Shown one piece after another: positions 3-17,751 of a stretch of 64,000 nucleotides of DNA (the first letter of the stretch is position 1; every line of letters begins with the position of its first letter). The notes beneath the pieces were generated by a model. The model did no database searches, had not been told where the DNA came from, and worked only from the letters and a program-made list of their open reading frames with translations. Both the position numbers and the translations under genes were made by a program. Source of the stretch: a virus; IMG/VR virus record IMGVR_UViG_3300020180_000013, positions 1 to 64,000 of that record, one strand, 5' to 3'.

Positions 3-368
3 AAAATTCCTTTAGATAGTAGAATAAAAGACTATTCTGATATAATTGATGAATTAAAAATTAAAGAATTAACTATAAATGACTTTGGTTTTCTACCTGA
101 AAATCAAAGAATAAAACTTTTTGCTTCACATAAAATACGAAATATAGTAGATGTAATAAATGAAGGATGGGTTCCTAATTTTAATGATTCTACTGAAAGA
201 AAATATTATCCTTACTTTATCAAAAGGAATGGTGTCTGGGGTTTCGGCTTCTCTGATTATCGTGATAGTGCTTATTCTTACGGCATGGTTGGGCTTTACC
301 AAACTGAAGAAAAGTCTAATTTTGTAGGTAAAAAATTTTTGGATATTTATAGTGATTATTTAGATTAA
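3..368 (+). CDS. DGR target protein, 5'-truncated by the window edge; variable region near the C-terminus
   Basis: Open frame 3..368 translated by hand: ...INEGWVPNFNDSTERKYYPYFIKRNGVWGFGFSDYRDSAYSYGMVGLYQTEEKSNFVGKKFLDIYSDYLD*. It contains VR 231-299. It is absent from the ORF track because it has no start inside the window. Confidence 0.85.
   Translation, partial: KIPLDSRIKDYSDIIDELKIKELTINDFGFLPENQRIKLFASHKIRNIVDVINEGWVPNFNDSTERKYYPYFIKRNGVWGFGFSDYRDSAYSYGMVGLYQTEEKSNFVGKKFLDIYSDYLD
231..299 (+). repeat. DGR variable repeat (VR)
   Basis: 69-nt ungapped match to 391-459 with 51/69 identity; 17 of the 18 mismatches are at TR adenines. Confidence 0.92.
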
Positions 369-390
369 TAATATGGTTAAGCATTTAACT

Positions 391-459
391 AGTGTCTGGA
401 GTTTCAACAACTCTAATTATCATAATAGTGATAATTCTAACAGCCAAGTTGAGCTATAC
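391..459 (+). repeat. DGR template repeat (TR)
   Basis: Non-coding AAC/AAT-rich copy of the VR: agt gtc tgg agt ttc aac aac tct aat tat cat aat agt gat aat tct aac agc caa gtt gag cta tac. Confidence 0.92.
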
Positions 460-486
460 TTTAATAGTAAGTAATAGATACTAACC

Positions 487-501
487 TTAGCATCATGCTA
501 A
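487..501 (+). other. Hairpin in the post-TR spacer, putative DGR RNA element
   Basis: ttagca-tca-tgctaa perfect stem followed by an A-run, 27 nt after the TR. Confidence 0.5.
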
Positions 502-537
502 AAAATAGATAAGTAAAAATAAGATCTTAGTAAATAA

Positions 538-960
538 TTGAAAAGTTCTTTTAATAAAAGTAAATTAACTATTGTGGCAAAATTACCGGTAACTGTGGTG
601 TATAAAATAGATGAGGATGGAAATCTTCAACCTAATACAGAAGCAGATAGAATAATGAAAGATTTATTTAAGAAAGATTGTAAACAAGGAGAACTTGTAG
701 AGATAACTTATGAAATACAAAATAATGATCACTCATACGGTCAACTAAGTAAGGTGAAACCTATGGTAAGAGAATTAGCTGCAGAGACTGGAGTAACTTT
801 TATGGAAATGGAAAAGATAATTAAGGAGAAAGTTGGCTTAGTAAATTCTGATGGATCAGTTAAGTCATTTGGAGATTGTAGTAAACAAGAAGTAAGTTCT
901 GCTATACAGGCTTGTGAAGAGTTAATGAGTTTTATACGACCAGCAATAGATGAGCAATGA
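538..960 (+). CDS. Hypothetical protein, possibly NinB/Orf-like; true start may be GTG at 574
   Basis: ORF track; the segment HSYGQLSKVKPMVRELAAETG...SFGDCSKQEVS loosely resembles NinB-family patterns. Confidence 0.45.
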   Translation: MKSSFNKSKLTIVAKLPVTVVYKIDEDGNLQPNTEADRIMKDLFKKDCKQGELVEITYEIQNNDHSYGQLSKVKPMVRELAAETGVTFMEMEKIIKEKVGLVNSDGSVKSFGDCSKQEVSSAIQACEELMSFIRPAIDEQ

Positions 961-3164: not shown

Positions 3165-3407
3165 ATGAACAATACTGATTATCCTGTAGGTTCCGATACC
3201 TCAGATGCTCCCTGGAATGAGCAAGATTATGGAGATAAAGAATGTCCTGTATGTATGGGAGATAAATATTTATATTATGCTCCTACAGATAGTGACGGAG
3301 AATATAATAAAGAGTCCTGTCATAATTGTGATGGTAGTGGAGTTATTCCTATGAATAGGCAAGATCATTTAGATAGACTAGAATCTAAAAGAGAAGATAT
3401 GAAATAG
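3165..3407 (+). CDS. Small DnaJ-like zinc-finger protein
   Basis: CPVCMGD and CHNCDGSG motifs. Confidence 0.65.
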   Translation: MNNTDYPVGSDTSDAPWNEQDYGDKECPVCMGDKYLYYAPTDSDGEYNKESCHNCDGSGVIPMNRQDHLDRLESKREDMK

Positions 3408-3437
3408 AAAAACCGGAGTTTTTACTTCCGGTTTTCT
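3406..3437 (+). terminator. Hairpin, putative intrinsic terminator
   Basis: aaaaccgga...tccggtttt inverted repeat immediately after the stop at 3407. Confidence 0.5.
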
Positions 3438-3519
3438 ATGAGTGTTCAGCTTGACTAACTATGAACAAAGAAATATTTTTTACCCCTATTAGTTCTTTTT
3501 TGACTTCTGAAATAAAGAT

Positions 3520-4155
3520 ATGGATTTAATTTTAAAATACTATAAAAAATATATTAACATGCTCGAGATATTTAATTTATTGGCTAAATATGAGCTTTCT
3601 CCTAATCAATATTATATGTTGATTAGCATGAAAGAAGGAATTAGTTGTCCTCAGATAAATGAGGCTCAGGAGCTTAGAGCTCTTATAAGTAAAGATTTTA
3701 TATATACTGGTGAAAAGGATCTTACTCAAAAATCTTTTGATATTATAGCTGAGGTTGAAGGAATGGTTAAACTAGCTAGTAAGAAAGTTACCAAGGCTGT
3801 ATTAGGTCCGGAAGCTAGTGATAGTATAGATAAGTATAGAGAGATGTGGAATATGGGTAAACTACCTTCTGGAGTACCGGCCCGGGTTAATAAGAAAGAA
3901 CTAGAGACTAAATTTCAGAAGTTTTTTCAGAAGTATACTTATAGTTGGGAAGAGATCTTAGCAGCCACTGCTTATTATATAGATCAGTTTGAAAGAAATA
4001 GTCCTCCTTATCTGTATATGAAGAATTCAAGTTACTTTATCTCCAAGATGACTCAGGATAAATCCCAAGAATCAACATTAGCTAATTATATAGAGCTAAT
4101 GAGAAGTGGAGATGATGAATTAAAAGCTAAAACATTTAGTGAAAAAGTAGTATGA
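3520..4155 (+). CDS. Hypothetical replication-region protein, possible initiator or helicase loader
   Basis: 211-aa ORF upstream of dnaB with a winged-helix-like N-terminus; function inferred from position only. Confidence 0.45.
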   Translation: MDLILKYYKKYINMLEIFNLLAKYELSPNQYYMLISMKEGISCPQINEAQELRALISKDFIYTGEKDLTQKSFDIIAEVEGMVKLASKKVTKAVLGPEASDSIDKYREMWNMGKLPSGVPARVNKKELETKFQKFFQKYTYSWEEILAATAYYIDQFERNSPPYLYMKNSSYFISKMTQDKSQESTLANYIELMRSGDDELKAKTFSEKVV

Positions 4156-4367
4156 GTCCTTCTACTATCCTACCTACATATATTAGAGAGGACTTATATA
4201 ATATGGGATTAGATTATTACTTTGCATTTATAGGAAATAATTTTATTATTACATGCAATGATATTGATATATTCACATTTTATGTACATCCTAACTATCC
4301 TATTTGGGAAACTATGATATTAGATACTATAAAAAGGCTATTCAAAAAGAAATTGATCCATGACTAG
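4152..4367 (+). CDS. Hypothetical protein
   Basis: Short ORF coupled to neighbours by overlaps. Confidence 0.55.
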   Translation: MSPSTILPTYIREDLYNMGLDYYFAFIGNNFIITCNDIDIFTFYVHPNYPIWETMILDTIKRLFKKKLIHD

Positions 4368-4617
4368 AGAAGATGTATTTCAGAAATTTAAAGATATGGG
4401 TCTTATCATAGCAGATGATGTAGAATACCCGTGTTGGATTACTCCAAATAGATCTCATATTATTAATATCGACCATTATACAGATAGTGGGATTGGAAAT
4501 AATACCGGTGGTATACTTATCCAGAAGATGGATGAAAGTGAAATGGGAAGATGGTATGATTATGAATTAGGTATAAAGATGATACAAGGTATAATAAAGA
4601 AAGCTATAGATCCATGA
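4360..4617 (+). CDS. Hypothetical protein, paralogue of 4614..4865
   Basis: KDMGLIIADD..WITP motif shared with the next ORF. Confidence 0.6.
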   Translation: MTREDVFQKFKDMGLIIADDVEYPCWITPNRSHIINIDHYTDSGIGNNTGGILIQKMDESEMGRWYDYELGIKMIQGIIKKAIDP

Positions 4618-4865
4618 AACTTCAAAAAGAAAAGGATTTATTTATTAATAGACTTAAAGATCTTGGATTAGTAGAATATGCAGATGATTCATGGTATACT
4701 CCTGATTGTAAAATCTATGTATATGTACATTATGATTTAAGATATCAGTATCTTTTTATTAGAATATCTCCTTTGCCTATGCAATTAGATGGAGCCTGGA
4801 ATGCAGAAAATGCTATAAAAAGAATACAAGATTCTATTCAGGAAAATCTAGAATCTTGTAAATAA
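4614..4865 (+). CDS. Hypothetical protein, paralogue of 4360..4617
   Basis: KDLGLVEYADDSWYTP motif. Confidence 0.6.
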   Translation: MKLQKEKDLFINRLKDLGLVEYADDSWYTPDCKIYVYVHYDLRYQYLFIRISPLPMQLDGAWNAENAIKRIQDSIQENLESCK

Positions 4866-4999
4866 TTATTAATATTTTCTTGTTTAGTATAATAACTTTT
4901 TCTATTCTTGTAGTAGAGAATTACAATCCAAAATCTTAATAAAATGCCTCTTAAATCTAACAGATTAGGGGCATTCTTTCTCTAATAATTAACCAAAAT

Positions 5000-5983
5000 A
5001 TGACAGAAAAACCGTGGTCTAGTCAAAGAGATGGGTTCCTAAATAGTCTCCACTACATGAAAGGTAGAATGGAAGGAACTATAAAATCTCTCAAGACTCC
5101 ATGGGCTAAATTTAATGATGCTACTACTGATGGTTTAGAATGGAATTCTGTCACTATAATAGGTGGTAGACCGGCTAGTTTTAAAACAGGATTAAAAGAT
5201 CAGATAATAAGAGAATCATTTAAACTTAATCCTGGAGAAGACTTCCGGGTACTAGAATTCTCATTTGAGATGTTAGCTAGAACAACAGCTATAAGAGAAT
5301 ATAGTAGTATCCTTCAGAAGTCTTATAAATACTTATGTAGTGCAGATGGAAAATTAACTCAGGATGATCTAGACAAATGTTATGCTCATGCTAAAGAAAG
5401 AGTTAAATACCCGATAGATATAGTAGAAGAATCTACTACTGTAGATGAATTTGAGGAGATTGTTATAGAGTACATGAACAATCACTCTGAAGTAATAGAA
5501 AATAAAAAAGTATATAAGAAAACTATTGTTACAATTGATCATACTTTATTATTCAAATTATCTCCGGCTGAAAAAGGTAAGAATGATATGCTGTTTCATT
5601 TAGGTGAAGTTCTTACTAGGCTTAAGAGAAGATATCCTATTGCTTTTATTGTACTTACTCAACTCAATAGAAATGTTGATTCTCCGGAAAGGTGTGAGGA
5701 CGGTAAATATGGTAATTATATTCTTGAGTCAGATATATTTGGAGCTGATGCTATGCTTCAACATGCTGATGTTTTGATAGGTCTCAATAGACCGGGTAAG
5801 CAGAAAATTAGATTCTATGGGCCTGATAGATTTATAATAGATGATGATAAAGTAATAGTAATGCATTTTATTAAATGTAGAAATGGAGATACTAGGTTAA
5901 GTTTCTTTAGAGCAGAATTTGATAAAATGAGATTAGTAGAAATGAATACTCCAGGTCAACAAGAACGAAGATCTAAATCATAA
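5000..5983 (+). CDS. dnaB: DnaB-like SF4 replicative helicase, ATPase domain only
   Basis: GGRPASFKT (H1), FSFEM (H1a), TIDH (H2), LTQLNR (H3), ADAMLQHAD and KCRNG (H4). Confidence 0.88.
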   Translation: MTEKPWSSQRDGFLNSLHYMKGRMEGTIKSLKTPWAKFNDATTDGLEWNSVTIIGGRPASFKTGLKDQIIRESFKLNPGEDFRVLEFSFEMLARTTAIREYSSILQKSYKYLCSADGKLTQDDLDKCYAHAKERVKYPIDIVEESTTVDEFEEIVIEYMNNHSEVIENKKVYKKTIVTIDHTLLFKLSPAEKGKNDMLFHLGEVLTRLKRRYPIAFIVLTQLNRNVDSPERCEDGKYGNYILESDIFGADAMLQHADVLIGLNRPGKQKIRFYGPDRFIIDDDKVIVMHFIKCRNGDTRLSFFRAEFDKMRLVEMNTPGQQERRSKS

Positions 5984-5997
5984 TTAAAAATAATATC

Positions 5998-6549
5998 ATG
6001 AGTGAAGAAAAAATGAGTAAAGATGTAAGAGATGTTAGAACTGTAGAATTAAGAGTATGGCAGCAGCCAGTATTTGATAAATTAGGTTTACCAAATGCAT
6101 ATTATTTACCTAAGATGGCTTATCATGTTAATGGAGTATTAGTCATGGGTATGTTTGATAGTGAGATTAAACCTAATACAGATATTTATACTGAAAAAAC
6201 AAACTGGTATCATCAACCAGAATATCCGGGAGGAAAATTAATCACTGATACTAATGATAGACAGTTATTAAAATGGAATTTTAATCCTCATTGGCATGAA
6301 GAATATGGAAGGAAAGATGGCAAACCTAATGGAGCTGTTCTTATTCCTGTAGCAGAAATGATAACTATAGATAGAACTGAGGCATTACAAACAGAACTTG
6401 TAGCTGATTTTAATGATATAATGGATCCTGAAACAGATTCTCCAGTAGATCAATTAACAGGCAGAGATTGGGCAGCTATAATGTGGTCTAAACCGGTGGC
6501 TTCTAAGAAATGGCTTAATGAGCTAGTACAGAAAACATTTAAGAAGTAA
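5998..6549 (+). CDS. Hypothetical protein
   Basis: 183-aa ORF in the replication operon. Confidence 0.7.
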   Translation: MSEEKMSKDVRDVRTVELRVWQQPVFDKLGLPNAYYLPKMAYHVNGVLVMGMFDSEIKPNTDIYTEKTNWYHQPEYPGGKLITDTNDRQLLKWNFNPHWHEEYGRKDGKPNGAVLIPVAEMITIDRTEALQTELVADFNDIMDPETDSPVDQLTGRDWAAIMWSKPVASKKWLNELVQKTFKK

Positions 6550-14551: not shown

Positions 14552-15678
14552 GTTATAATCCATTTATTAAAATAGATCAGGATAAGATTGATAAACTTCC
14601 CTGGATTCAACAGGGTTGGCAATATTATTTTGCTGATAGTAATAAAAGTATTGGTGTAGGTATTGTATATGATGTCTCAAGAGAGACCTATGGTAAACTT
14701 AATGAAAGACTTAGGGGGTCTGGAAATGACACTATTAAGCCAAAAGATAAAGTATATCTCTTACCTGGTAGTAAGATTCCCTTGTTTAAGTTAAAAGATC
14801 ATCTTAGAAAAATAGGAGCTACTCATGTTGGTGATATAAATAAAGCTACATTCTTTATAGGTAATAATAATATAGCTTTTGAAGTTGAACATGCTCAAGC
14901 AAAGATGACTAATATTATATTTACTGATAGAAGTCCTGAAATAGTTACAGATAATTATTCATGTGAGAGTCATTTTACTACTAGATATTCTACAGAGGCC
15001 AGATCTTCTGTAGAAGGTTATATTAATAGTGGTGATAGATATTCTCAGATATATTTAGCTTATCCTACTTGTAGAGGAGGTATAGACTGGGTTGAAAGTA
15101 GATTTGTTCAATATTTTGTTACTCCGGTAGCAGCTATGATTATTTATAATTCTATATCTAAGAAGATTCCAATTGTTAGTGAGGATGTAATTCTTGATCA
15201 GATGTCACCATCTACTATTATAGATCAAGAAGTATATGAAAGTATAGTAAGTATGTTTCAGAGTACAGATCGAACTAATCATGAAATAGGAATAGAAATT
15301 ATGGCTAATTGTGATATAAAGAAATCTATCTTTTATTTATGGAGATTAAATAAAGGATGGTCTTACAAAATTAATAATTCAAGAATGAAAAATATAAGAT
15401 TATTTGTTGAGAGATCTGCATGGAAGGACTTATATGGTATGGATGCAGAAGACTTTATTGAGTATATGTATACTAATGATTATTTAACTAAAGAGTTTTA
15501 TCAGGAATTAATTAAGACAGTTGCTGAGAACTATAAAGATAAGTTAGAGTCTCCTGTATTTAAAATAACATTAGCTCCATCTGAGAAATATAAAGAGTAT
15601 TCAGATGAGACTGATGTGTTTGAGTTTACTCATAAGGATGAACAAACTACAACAAGAAATATTGAAAACTATGCATAA
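14548..15678 (+). CDS. Hypothetical protein with a BRCT-like segment and an EIMANC helical domain
   Basis: IPLFKLKDHLRKIGATHVGDINKATFFI; EIMANC. Confidence 0.65.
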   Translation: MSYNPFIKIDQDKIDKLPWIQQGWQYYFADSNKSIGVGIVYDVSRETYGKLNERLRGSGNDTIKPKDKVYLLPGSKIPLFKLKDHLRKIGATHVGDINKATFFIGNNNIAFEVEHAQAKMTNIIFTDRSPEIVTDNYSCESHFTTRYSTEARSSVEGYINSGDRYSQIYLAYPTCRGGIDWVESRFVQYFVTPVAAMIIYNSISKKIPIVSEDVILDQMSPSTIIDQEVYESIVSMFQSTDRTNHEIGIEIMANCDIKKSIFYLWRLNKGWSYKINNSRMKNIRLFVERSAWKDLYGMDAEDFIEYMYTNDYLTKEFYQELIKTVAENYKDKLESPVFKITLAPSEKYKEYSDETDVFEFTHKDEQTTTRNIENYA

Positions 15679-16747
15679 TAAATTTGAGGAAACTATTGTA
15701 ATTGATAGGTTTGATGCTAGTACTAATTGTATAAAATATTCTAAAAGGTTTGTATATATTCCTGAAATAACTTCAAGAATTGTAGACTGGGTTAATTGGA
15801 GTGAGTTATATAAAGATATCTCAAAGAAAAATCTTGATATTACTAATGTAAATACTATACATTTTTATAATAAATGTACAGTTCCTAGGTTTAAATTAAA
15901 AGACTTTTGTACTGCAAATAGTATATCTTCAGTAAGAGATAGTAATAAAGCAGATATTGTAATATTAGGTCCGGAAAGTATAGATACAACTATTTATACT
16001 TCTTACTCAACAATTATAGAACCTGAAGTACTATATACTATCTTATTTACTCATAAAGATATCCTTTTAGGAGAGTTTAGTAATCTTGATCAATTTCTTT
16101 CTGATTTGAAATCCTGTACATGTAAATATATATTTAATACTCAAGACTATGCTTACTATGCTTTTAGAAAAATATTTATTAGTAAAGGATTAATTAAAAT
16201 TAGTGAACAACTTCAAGGTTTTATAGTAGCTAGGTTCTCTATTACTAATGATCCAAGTTTTGTAGATAAACTAATTGATCCTAATAATAATTTCTATGGT
16301 CAAGATAGTATCTTGAGACTTTTAAATATAGGAGCTATAATAAATAAAGAAGTAAGTGATCAAATCAGTGCTCTAATTGATAGTGAAGATAAACAGAACG
16401 TAGTAGTAGCTATGGAGATTATGGCTAATTGCAACTATGAAGAATCTATTATATACTTATGTCTATTATTTAGAAACTATTATGGAACCAAATTTAGGTC
16501 AGTAAAAGAAAATAATGCTGTAAATTTTAAATCTCTTAAAAAGTATTTGGGTCTTAATTTATATCATATTACTTTAGATAATATTGTAAATGTATGTATT
16601 AATAAAGATCTATTGACTCAATCTAATATTGATATCCTTCAGAGTATTGCATTTGCTGAAGCTCAAGAATCTGCTAATACTAAATATTTTTGGATTACTA
16701 AAGTGGATTTTGTTAAAGAAGCTATAGAAGAGGAGGTAGAAGTATGA
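15671..16747 (+). CDS. Paralogue of 14548..15678; start revised to ATG 15671
   Basis: VPRFKLKDFCTANSISSVRDSNKADIVI; EIMANC; ATGCATAA overlap with the upstream stop. Confidence 0.65.
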   Translation: MHNKFEETIVIDRFDASTNCIKYSKRFVYIPEITSRIVDWVNWSELYKDISKKNLDITNVNTIHFYNKCTVPRFKLKDFCTANSISSVRDSNKADIVILGPESIDTTIYTSYSTIIEPEVLYTILFTHKDILLGEFSNLDQFLSDLKSCTCKYIFNTQDYAYYAFRKIFISKGLIKISEQLQGFIVARFSITNDPSFVDKLIDPNNNFYGQDSILRLLNIGAIINKEVSDQISALIDSEDKQNVVVAMEIMANCNYEESIIYLCLLFRNYYGTKFRSVKENNAVNFKSLKKYLGLNLYHITLDNIVNVCINKDLLTQSNIDILQSIAFAEAQESANTKYFWITKVDFVKEAIEEEVEV

Positions 16748-17751
16748 GTAGATCGGATCCAGGTTTAGATTCACAAGTAGTCAATCTTGAAGATGAATTC
16801 TTTAATAAGAAACACTACTTTTCATATTCAGGTTTGCAGAAGTTATTATATTCTCCTAAATTATGGTATAACCATTATATTATAGGAGAAAGAGAAGATA
16901 GATTAGATCAGCATTTAATTGATGGAAAAGTGATCCATTGTTTACTATTAGACAATGGTAATTTTGAGAAACAATTTATTATACTTCCGGGGAGGCTTCC
17001 CACAGGAAATAATAGAGTAGTAATAGATAAGTTATTTAACTTAACAAGGAATACAAAATCAGAAAAAGTATTAGGAGAGTTTGATAAAGAGATTTTAGAA
17101 ATACTAAAAGAGATAGATCTTCATCAATCATTGAAGACAGATGCTCAAAGGATAGAAAAGATAGTAACAGAAGAAAGTCGGAGTTACTATAATTATTTAG
17201 CAGAAAAAGGAAATAAGGATATACTGGATGAGGAGACCTTAGCAAGATGTCAGGAATCAGTAAAAATCCTAAGAAATAATAAGAAAGTAACACAATTATT
17301 ATGTCTGGAGTGTGACAACTCTATAGATATATATAATGAACTAGAAATAAAAGTTGAAGCCGGGGATTGGCCTTTTGGGTTTAAGGGGATTATAGATAAT
17401 CTGGTTATAGATAGAACCAATAAGGTTGTTTATATTAATGACTTAAAGACAAGTGGAAAAACTCTTGCTGATTTTAAAGAGACCATAGAGTATTATAAGT
17501 ACTGGCTTCAGGCTGCTATTTATATCTTTATGGTAAAGGAGTATTATAATTTAGATACAAGCTGGAAAATTAAGTTCACATTTATTGTTATTGATAAGTA
17601 TCTACAGGTTTACCCATTTGTAATTAGTGAAGTTACAATGAGTATATGGAATGACCGATTTTTAGATGCTGTATTAGTTGCAAACTATCATTATGAAAAT
17701 AAATCTTTTGATTTACCATATGAATTTTGTACTAATTCTGTAATTTTATAA
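16744..17751 (+). CDS. PD-(D/E)xK exonuclease (RecE/ExoVIII- or Cas4-like)
   Basis: SYSGL; E...FKGIIDNL...INDLKTSG; YWLQAAIY. Confidence 0.85.
   Translation: MSRSDPGLDSQVVNLEDEFFNKKHYFSYSGLQKLLYSPKLWYNHYIIGEREDRLDQHLIDGKVIHCLLLDNGNFEKQFIILPGRLPTGNNRVVIDKLFNLTRNTKSEKVLGEFDKEILEILKEIDLHQSLKTDAQRIEKIVTEESRSYYNYLAEKGNKDILDEETLARCQESVKILRNNKKVTQLLCLECDNSIDIYNELEIKVEAGDWPFGFKGIIDNLVIDRTNKVVYINDLKTSGKTLADFKETIEYYKYWLQAAIYIFMVKEYYNLDTSWKIKFTFIVIDKYLQVYPFVISEVTMSIWNDRFLDAVLVANYHYENKSFDLPYEFCTNSVIL

Follow-up and report, generated by a model that had tools for sequence, protein, structure and literature searches.

A diversity-generating retroelement cassette cut by the start of a crAss-like phage contig, with its reverse transcriptase gene probably lying just upstream of the sequenced end

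The window, namely, the whole 64,000-nucleotide stretch of DNA analyzed here, corresponds to bases 1-64000 of a linear 96,195-nt IMG/VR record, with base 1 of the window also being base 1 of that record. CheckV places the completeness of the contig at ~81%, and no terminal overlap between its two ends was found, such that circular closure was rejected. At its very start, the window contains a plus-strand ORF (positions 3-368) that is open at the 5' end. Alignment to the closest relatives of its product, P0001-P0007 (161-163 aa), revealed this ORF to comprise the last 121 codons and the stop codon of a diversity-generating retroelement (DGR) target gene (TG). In close relatives, this gene encodes 162 aa; the contig start falls inside it, with the first 41 codons missing. 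The target family profile A3 matched positions 3-365 with an E-value of 1.3e-52, this being the sole copy in the 96 kb, and neither a second target copy nor a second spacer was found on the contig.

Codons 118-140 of the 162-codon target correspond to a variable repeat (VR; positions 231-299, plus strand). A non-coding template repeat (TR; positions 391-459, plus strand) begins 22 nt past the target stop codon. Aligned without any gap, the two repeats are offset by 160 nt, with 17 of the 24 TR adenines being changed in the VR (10 to G, 6 to T, and 1 to C), as opposed to a single one of the 45 non-A positions (C445 in the TR versus A285 in the VR). The alignment and counts given in the initial annotation were thus reproduced exactly, and the adenine bias corresponds to a Fisher exact p of 9e-10. 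When read in the frame of the target, the TR contains six AAY codons, with 22 of its 24 adenines being found at codon positions 1-2. Together, the AAY codons and the A-specific differences correspond to the layout classically seen in DGR templates. Apart from the VR and the TR themselves, no match to the A-degenerate pattern of the TR, and hence no second VR, was found in the 96 kb.

The alternative that these repeats do not belong to a DGR at all but rather arose by ordinary duplication and divergence, or by chance, was considered. Whereas the lack of a reverse transcriptase (RT) gene on the contig is the one point in its favor, such an origin would not account for the adenine bias and the TR-typical AAY codon usage described above, nor for a spacer RNA of a DGR family, homologous targets found beside DGR RT genes, and allelic variation confined to the VR, as described below. 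Tests of substitutions, codons, spacer, neighbors, and alleles have thus already refuted this explanation, which we regard as virtually untenable. The assignment of the locus as a DGR is instead borne out by the A-specific VR/TR pattern, the AAY codons, the location of the VR in the 3' part of the target, the structured DGR-family RNA flanking the TR, and alleles that vary only within the VR.

A spacer of ~115 nt follows the TRs of one DGR family. Covariance model R1 was prepared from 26 TR modules of other phages using MAFFT and RNAalifold, with the window being excluded. In the 96 kb, this model yielded a single match, which was full length, at plus-strand positions 449-578 of the window (55.5 bits; E 3e-8), a region spanning the 3' end of the TR and the conserved spacer RNA (Sp). 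Helix 1 of the spacer (487-492/496-501) corresponds to the previously noted hairpin TTAGCA/TCA/TGCTAA at positions 487-501, which is indeed present and which relatives keep with compensatory changes. An A run (500-505) comes after helix 1, followed by helix 2 (about 521-528/543-550), which encloses AGTAAATAATTGA, and then by an A-rich leader to the start of the next gene. The family consensus reads similarly, opening with a stem-loop of 4-6 bp and an A run. A second helix then surrounds a UKGUA...GAA loop, sometimes with a further hairpin inside, and the A-rich leader stops at the next start codon. For the two helices predicted by RNAalifold, compensatory changes were seen in 10 of 10 pairs across the 26 modules. 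The share of paired cells was 93.8%, as compared to 34-56% when partners were slid, and the covariation score was 0.744, as compared to at most 0.20, with no shuffle matching the observed values. Support for this structure comes from comparative data only, given how a single-sequence fold of positions 380-575 was no better than shuffles (z -0.63). The model gave no significant match in the fetched regions of DGR-less relatives, and the spacer RNA had no match in Rfam. The model covers a very large clade of phage DGRs and finds TR modules even where the RT gene is gone.

The presence of an RT gene was sought across the whole 96,195-nt contig. No match to PF00078 was obtained in six frames with stops read through, a six-frame scan for the motif GxxxS[QP]...YxDD returned nothing, and a profile of RTs from the relevant DGR clade gave nothing at E <= 10 in the 96 kb. 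The same clade profile did detect RT stumps of 35 aa in other records. The earlier statement that no RT occurs in the remaining 63 kb of the window therefore holds and can be extended to 96 kb.

The first gene after the cassette (positions 574-960, plus strand) had been described as encoding a 140-aa non-RT protein. The protein is indeed not an RT, although the N-termini of its homologues favor a start at GTG 574 over that at TTG 538, such that a length of 128 aa is most likely. It presented no Pfam or Avd match, and its homologues lie directly upstream of the same uracil-DNA-glycosylase (UDG)-like gene in the DGR-less relatives G001-G004. On the basis of the lack of a Pfam match and this conserved neighborhood, the idea that the ORF behind the TR encodes Avd was rejected. 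More broadly, no Avd was found next to the TR, with the two small ORFs after the TR having no Pfam match, and no ORF of Avd size was found inside the cassettes of relatives. Judging from its homologues, the 128-aa gene is situated outside the DGR and marks the 3' boundary of the cassette, or insertion.

The phage from which the contig derives is, as judged by its portal protein, a distant crAss-like virus. This protein shares 27-32% identity with the portals of crAssE-Sib and Leptolyngbya phage Lbo-JY46, and it also matched cr108_1 (an uncultured crAss-like phage) as well as Cellulophaga and Bacteroides intestinalis phages. Relatives sharing 65-73% portal identity are 110-120 kb genomes bearing terminal repeats. 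A gene-by-gene comparison with one complete relative, G002, revealed full synteny from window position 538 onward and placed the two ends of the contig ~21 kb apart, this being the missing part. Among 35 records of family-level relatives, three of which are complete, neither an RT nor the target was found in any. As such, the DGR is a lineage-specific insertion, and synteny within the phage family offers no direct guide to the position of the RT gene.

Related DGRs were instead considered. Scanning viral contigs with an alignment built from the nearest members of the target family yielded 79 loci, and an RT co-occurs with a target homologue in 28 of the first 50 viral records. In addition, three members of the target family were paired with RTs of the clade by equal size of the encoding contig (P0015/P0175, P0016/P0265, and P0018/P0163). 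When viral, metagenome, and genome contigs were searched with the protein or with a 41-mer of the TR, no close relative was recovered, and the sole metagenome match to the target (L002, 27% identity) had no TR. The full order of the cassette in relatives is TG1-TR1-Sp1-RT-TG2-TR2-Sp2, where TG1, a paralogue of the target with a TR of its own, is usually present. In the closest relatives (39-44% identity; L102/103, L104/105, L108/109, L110, L112, and L118), the RT gene is found on the same strand, directly upstream of the target. Where a single ORF encodes the RT, its 3' end shares 10-26 nt with the target ORF, such that the RT stop overlaps the TG2 start codon, as in L104 (RT, 4323-5282; TG, 5269-5775), L108 (RT, 3319-4269; TG, 4259-4744), and L109 (RT, 5037-5987; TG, 5977-6462). 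These RTs are about 316-329 aa long, match PF00078, carry IGNYLSQ and YCDD, and belong to a clade of at least 8000 clusters at 90% identity. In these relatives, a TR with A-specific mismatches lies just past the target stop codon, at a VR-to-TR offset of 155-169 nt, compared to 160 nt in the window, and TR2 is followed by genes that have no relation to DGRs, just as the TR is in the window. A different order was noted at L107:6001-7984, where TGa-TRa-Sp and TGb-TRb-Sp precede the RT, with both TR modules thus being upstream of that gene.

Terminal TR-Sp modules that precede non-DGR genes, as in the window, offer the most direct comparison. In each of eight distinct cassettes of this type, an RT gene or an RT stump lies directly upstream. 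The RT is present in six (L102, L104, L108/109, L110, L112, and L127), being uninterrupted in four (L104, L108/109, L112, and L127) and interrupted in two (L102/103 and L110). In the remaining two (L134 and L139, of genomes G068 and G073), only a stump corresponding to the last 33-59 codons is seen. As for the interrupted genes, the RT at L102:5032-5986 and in L103 is split into two overlapping ORFs (212 and 143 aa), and an in-frame TGA separates RT halves of 185 and 137 aa at L110:4971-5942; these interruptions could reflect decay, programmed frameshifting, or stop-codon recoding. As for the stumps, the RT-deleted relic at L213:1510-2312 lies in the complete, DTR-bearing 96.9-kb genome G073, where the target is also split in two, and a second such relic (L212) lies in the 96%-complete 91.7-kb genome G068. 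The TG-TR-Sp modules of both relics keep A-biased mismatches.

With no RT being encoded in the 96 kb, with the contig being cut inside the target, and with relatives placing the RT directly upstream of that gene, it is probable that the window holds part of an ordinary DGR severed by the contig end, the RT of which lies just upstream of the target, off the contig. Given that an RT or stump is found directly upstream of the terminal target in related cassettes, the RT gene would be expected to lie roughly 125 nt outside the contig. Against this explanation stand the two of eight comparable cassettes that have lost the RT and the two more in which the RT is interrupted. The proposal in the initial annotation that the element is a non-autonomous, RT-less DGR is not supported, considering that the contig is truncated inside the target and that comparable cassettes have an RT or stump immediately upstream. 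Of the three locations that had been offered for the RT, i.e., upstream of the window, deleted, or supplied in trans, the first is best supported, deletion represents a minority possibility in light of the two relics, and nothing positive was found in favor of supply in trans.

An RT that does not adjoin the cassette would act in trans on the TR-Sp RNA, whether encoded elsewhere in the ~21 kb absent from the contig, by a co-infecting phage, or by the host. There are precedents for such arrangements: avd-TR-brt of BPP-1 function in trans when supplied on a plasmid (Wu et al., 2018; PMC5758913), TR and RT can lie on different strands, and a phage target ~20 kb from its RT is known (PMC5758913). 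Moreover, the recent VR diversity described below requires some RT. Still, an RT or stump adjoins the module in all eight comparable cassettes, no TR-Sp module lacking an adjacent RT or stump was seen among the 79 loci, and the spacer RNA is family-specific, such that a foreign RT would need to come from the same clade. A remote or trans-acting RT is hence considered improbable.

Whether the cassette has been active was addressed by comparing eight near-identical target proteins, namely, that of the window and P0001-P0007, with P0001, P0003, P0004, and P0005 being encoded on contigs of 115-121 kb. These eight proteins carry five VR alleles. When P0003, P0006, and P0007 were compared, none of the 139 residues outside the VR differed, as opposed to 9-10 of the 23-24 VR residues. 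Such differences, confined to the VR, indicate recent retrohoming in the lineage. Nearly all of the variant VR residues can be reached from the TR of the window via adenine changes alone. The exceptions, namely, D at the fourth VR codon of P0003 and M at codon 19 in the allele of the window (P0007 has I at the matching position), suggest small differences between the TRs of strains or rare non-A errors. It was also noted that the VR alleles of P0004 and P0007 (proteins of 161 and 163 aa) are shorter and longer by one codon, respectively, with the length change falling within the AAT-rich central part of the repeat, which suggests that TR length may differ between strains. At the same time, the window, P0001, P0005, and P0006 have one VR allele in common yet differ at 1-4 other residues, such that no VR turnover is seen in the sub-lineage of the window itself. 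VR turnover may accordingly be episodic, or the allele of the window may be under selection.

These observations bear on the possibility that the RT has been deleted or broken, leaving TG-TR-Sp as a frozen remnant in which the VR differences date from earlier activity. The invariant VR allele of these four strain variants would be in line with such a history, as would the single non-A mismatch between the VR and the TR. Relics of the same family exist in G073 (DTR; 100% complete) and G068 (96% complete), where only the last RT codons persist, and fragmented or RT-deleted cassettes have been reported in crAss-like phages (PMC11054128; PMC12386605). Yet the five VR alleles found among otherwise identical proteins show that homing postdates nearly all other substitutions in the gene. 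Likewise, only one of 45 non-A positions differs and the TR has kept its six AAY codons, the spacer score of 55.5 bits falls inside the 53.5-79 bit range of terminal modules that lie beside RT genes, and the target ORF is intact here and in all seven relatives, as opposed to that of G073, which is itself broken. We therefore consider a relic unlikely, although less so than an RT acting from afar.

In the preferred reading, that of an ordinary DGR cut by the contig end, the window would contain the 3' terminal module (TG2 minus 41 codons, TR2, and Sp2) of an Avd-less phage DGR in which the RT gene immediately precedes the target, with the contig start having severed the RT. The cDNA would replace the VR at positions 231-299, thereby recoding up to 16 target codons, corresponding to about 1.5e13 possible peptides. 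That an intact RT gene lies immediately outside the contig, as well as the chemistry of priming, is what we infer. By analogy with BPP-1, the RT would need the spacer RNA; the resemblance of this spacer to the BPP-1 RNA offers a possible lead as to mechanism and is not put forward as tested homology.

Comparison with BPP-1 (mtd-avd-TR-brt) revealed several similarities, namely, a VR at the 3' end of the target, a nearby non-coding TR, A-specific changes in AAY codons, and structured RNA downstream of the TR, in this case, helix 1 followed by an A run. By contrast, Avd is absent from the window and from the cassettes of relatives, the RT of relatives lies upstream of TG2 rather than downstream of the TR, relatives have a second TR-Sp module, and the 162-aa target has no C-type lectin match and is encoded among early/replication genes instead of being a tail fiber. 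The cassette also recalls Architecture A, the class lacking accessory genes and organized around a TR-RT or RT-TR core (Wu et al., 2018; PMC5758913), in that avd, HRDC, MSL, and CH1 are all absent, all parts are on one strand, and the positions of targets around the core vary. It differs in that the single RT of relatives is flanked by a pair of TR-spacer modules, each of which adjoins a small target of its own; no mention of two TRs per RT was found in the text of that survey. DGRs have also been described in crAss-like phages, including crAssphage LMMB, the zeta phage 'Lera', and the epsilon phage crAssE-Sib, to which the source phage is akin as a distant crAss-like virus. In crAss-like groups, complete, fragmented, and RT-deleted cassettes coexist (PMC11054128; PMC12386605), and multi-TR cassettes have been reported for Lera and ct1yV3. 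The published targets are, however, tail-fiber or receptor-binding proteins with C-type lectin domains encoded in the structural block, unlike the small, uncharacterized target considered here, which is encoded upstream of replication genes.

A full HMMER scan identified 1086 target-related clusters at E <= 1e-3, with most members being 120-190 aa long. P0008, P0022, P0047, and P0155 are instead 250-350 aa long, with two or three separate segments of each matching the query, and are tandem fusions of the small target domain. AlphaFold (AF2) models of the target presented a pLDDT of 95.7 over its full length and of 92.3 over the C-terminal 115 residues. In the predicted order of elements, an N-terminal helical repeat precedes a long helix, after which come a conserved NEGWxPxW...KYYPYF loop and a beta hairpin, with a loop and two helices at the end. 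In the model, the VR corresponds to one strand of the hairpin, namely, the second, together with the loop that follows. The DGR variable proteins Mtd, TvpA, and TaqVP display the VR on a C-type lectin fold; the models of the target show helices and a single beta hairpin. No known fold or family was assigned to the target by Pfam, PDB sequences, Foldseek, or VIA-align. Specifically, Foldseek against the PDB returned nothing at E <= 1e-3, and VIA-align of the VR domain against 48,161 chains gave a best Z of 4.4, with no C-type lectin in the top 50. The N-terminal helical repeat showed weak ARM/HEAT-like matches (Z 5-6), and a search of BFVD returned only uncharacterized proteins of crAss-like and other phages. 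These negative searches do not amount to proof of a new fold.

We tentatively raise the possibility that the 162-aa protein provides a non-C-type-lectin DGR scaffold that, with its gene lying in the early region of this crAss-like phage, may serve as an intracellular binder, for instance of a variable host defense or takeover target, rather than in receptor binding, with one RT serving two TR-spacer modules. As annotated DGR variable regions were systematically of the C-type lectin type in a large survey (Roux et al., 2021), this small and confidently modeled target family lacking a C-type lectin match is worthy of structural and functional study.

The DGR in the window is thus ordinary in kind. 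The less ordinary traits are those of its family, in which each RT comes with two TR-spacer modules, Avd is absent, and the target is a small early-gene product that does not match lectins. The enzyme-less appearance of the cassette is most likely mainly an assembly artifact. As a contig break best explains why this DGR looks RT-less, the cassette ought not to be listed among non-autonomous elements. The presence of one TR-spacer module on either side of a single RT is a recurrent architecture, which also explains why a TR can be followed by unrelated genes.

Several additional features of the phage genomes were noted. Right after the 128-aa gene, positions 1588-2304 of the window encode a 238-aa protein that matches phrog_12143 (E 1e-43), has no Pfam match, and is 42-55% identical to its counterparts in DGR-less relatives; its motifs look uracil-DNA-glycosylase-like. 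In the strand-switch region of the complete relative G002, a GC-rich stretch at 90.5-92 kb (L100, about 15500-17000) is devoid of a long clean ORF and may represent either an RNA gene or a mobile insertion. Finally, the last ORF before the other end of the contig (95542-96162, minus strand; L007:11542-12162) has a GIY-YIG-like N-terminus (GVYLIRN...YVGSS) and, on this motif reading alone, probably encodes a homing endonuclease.
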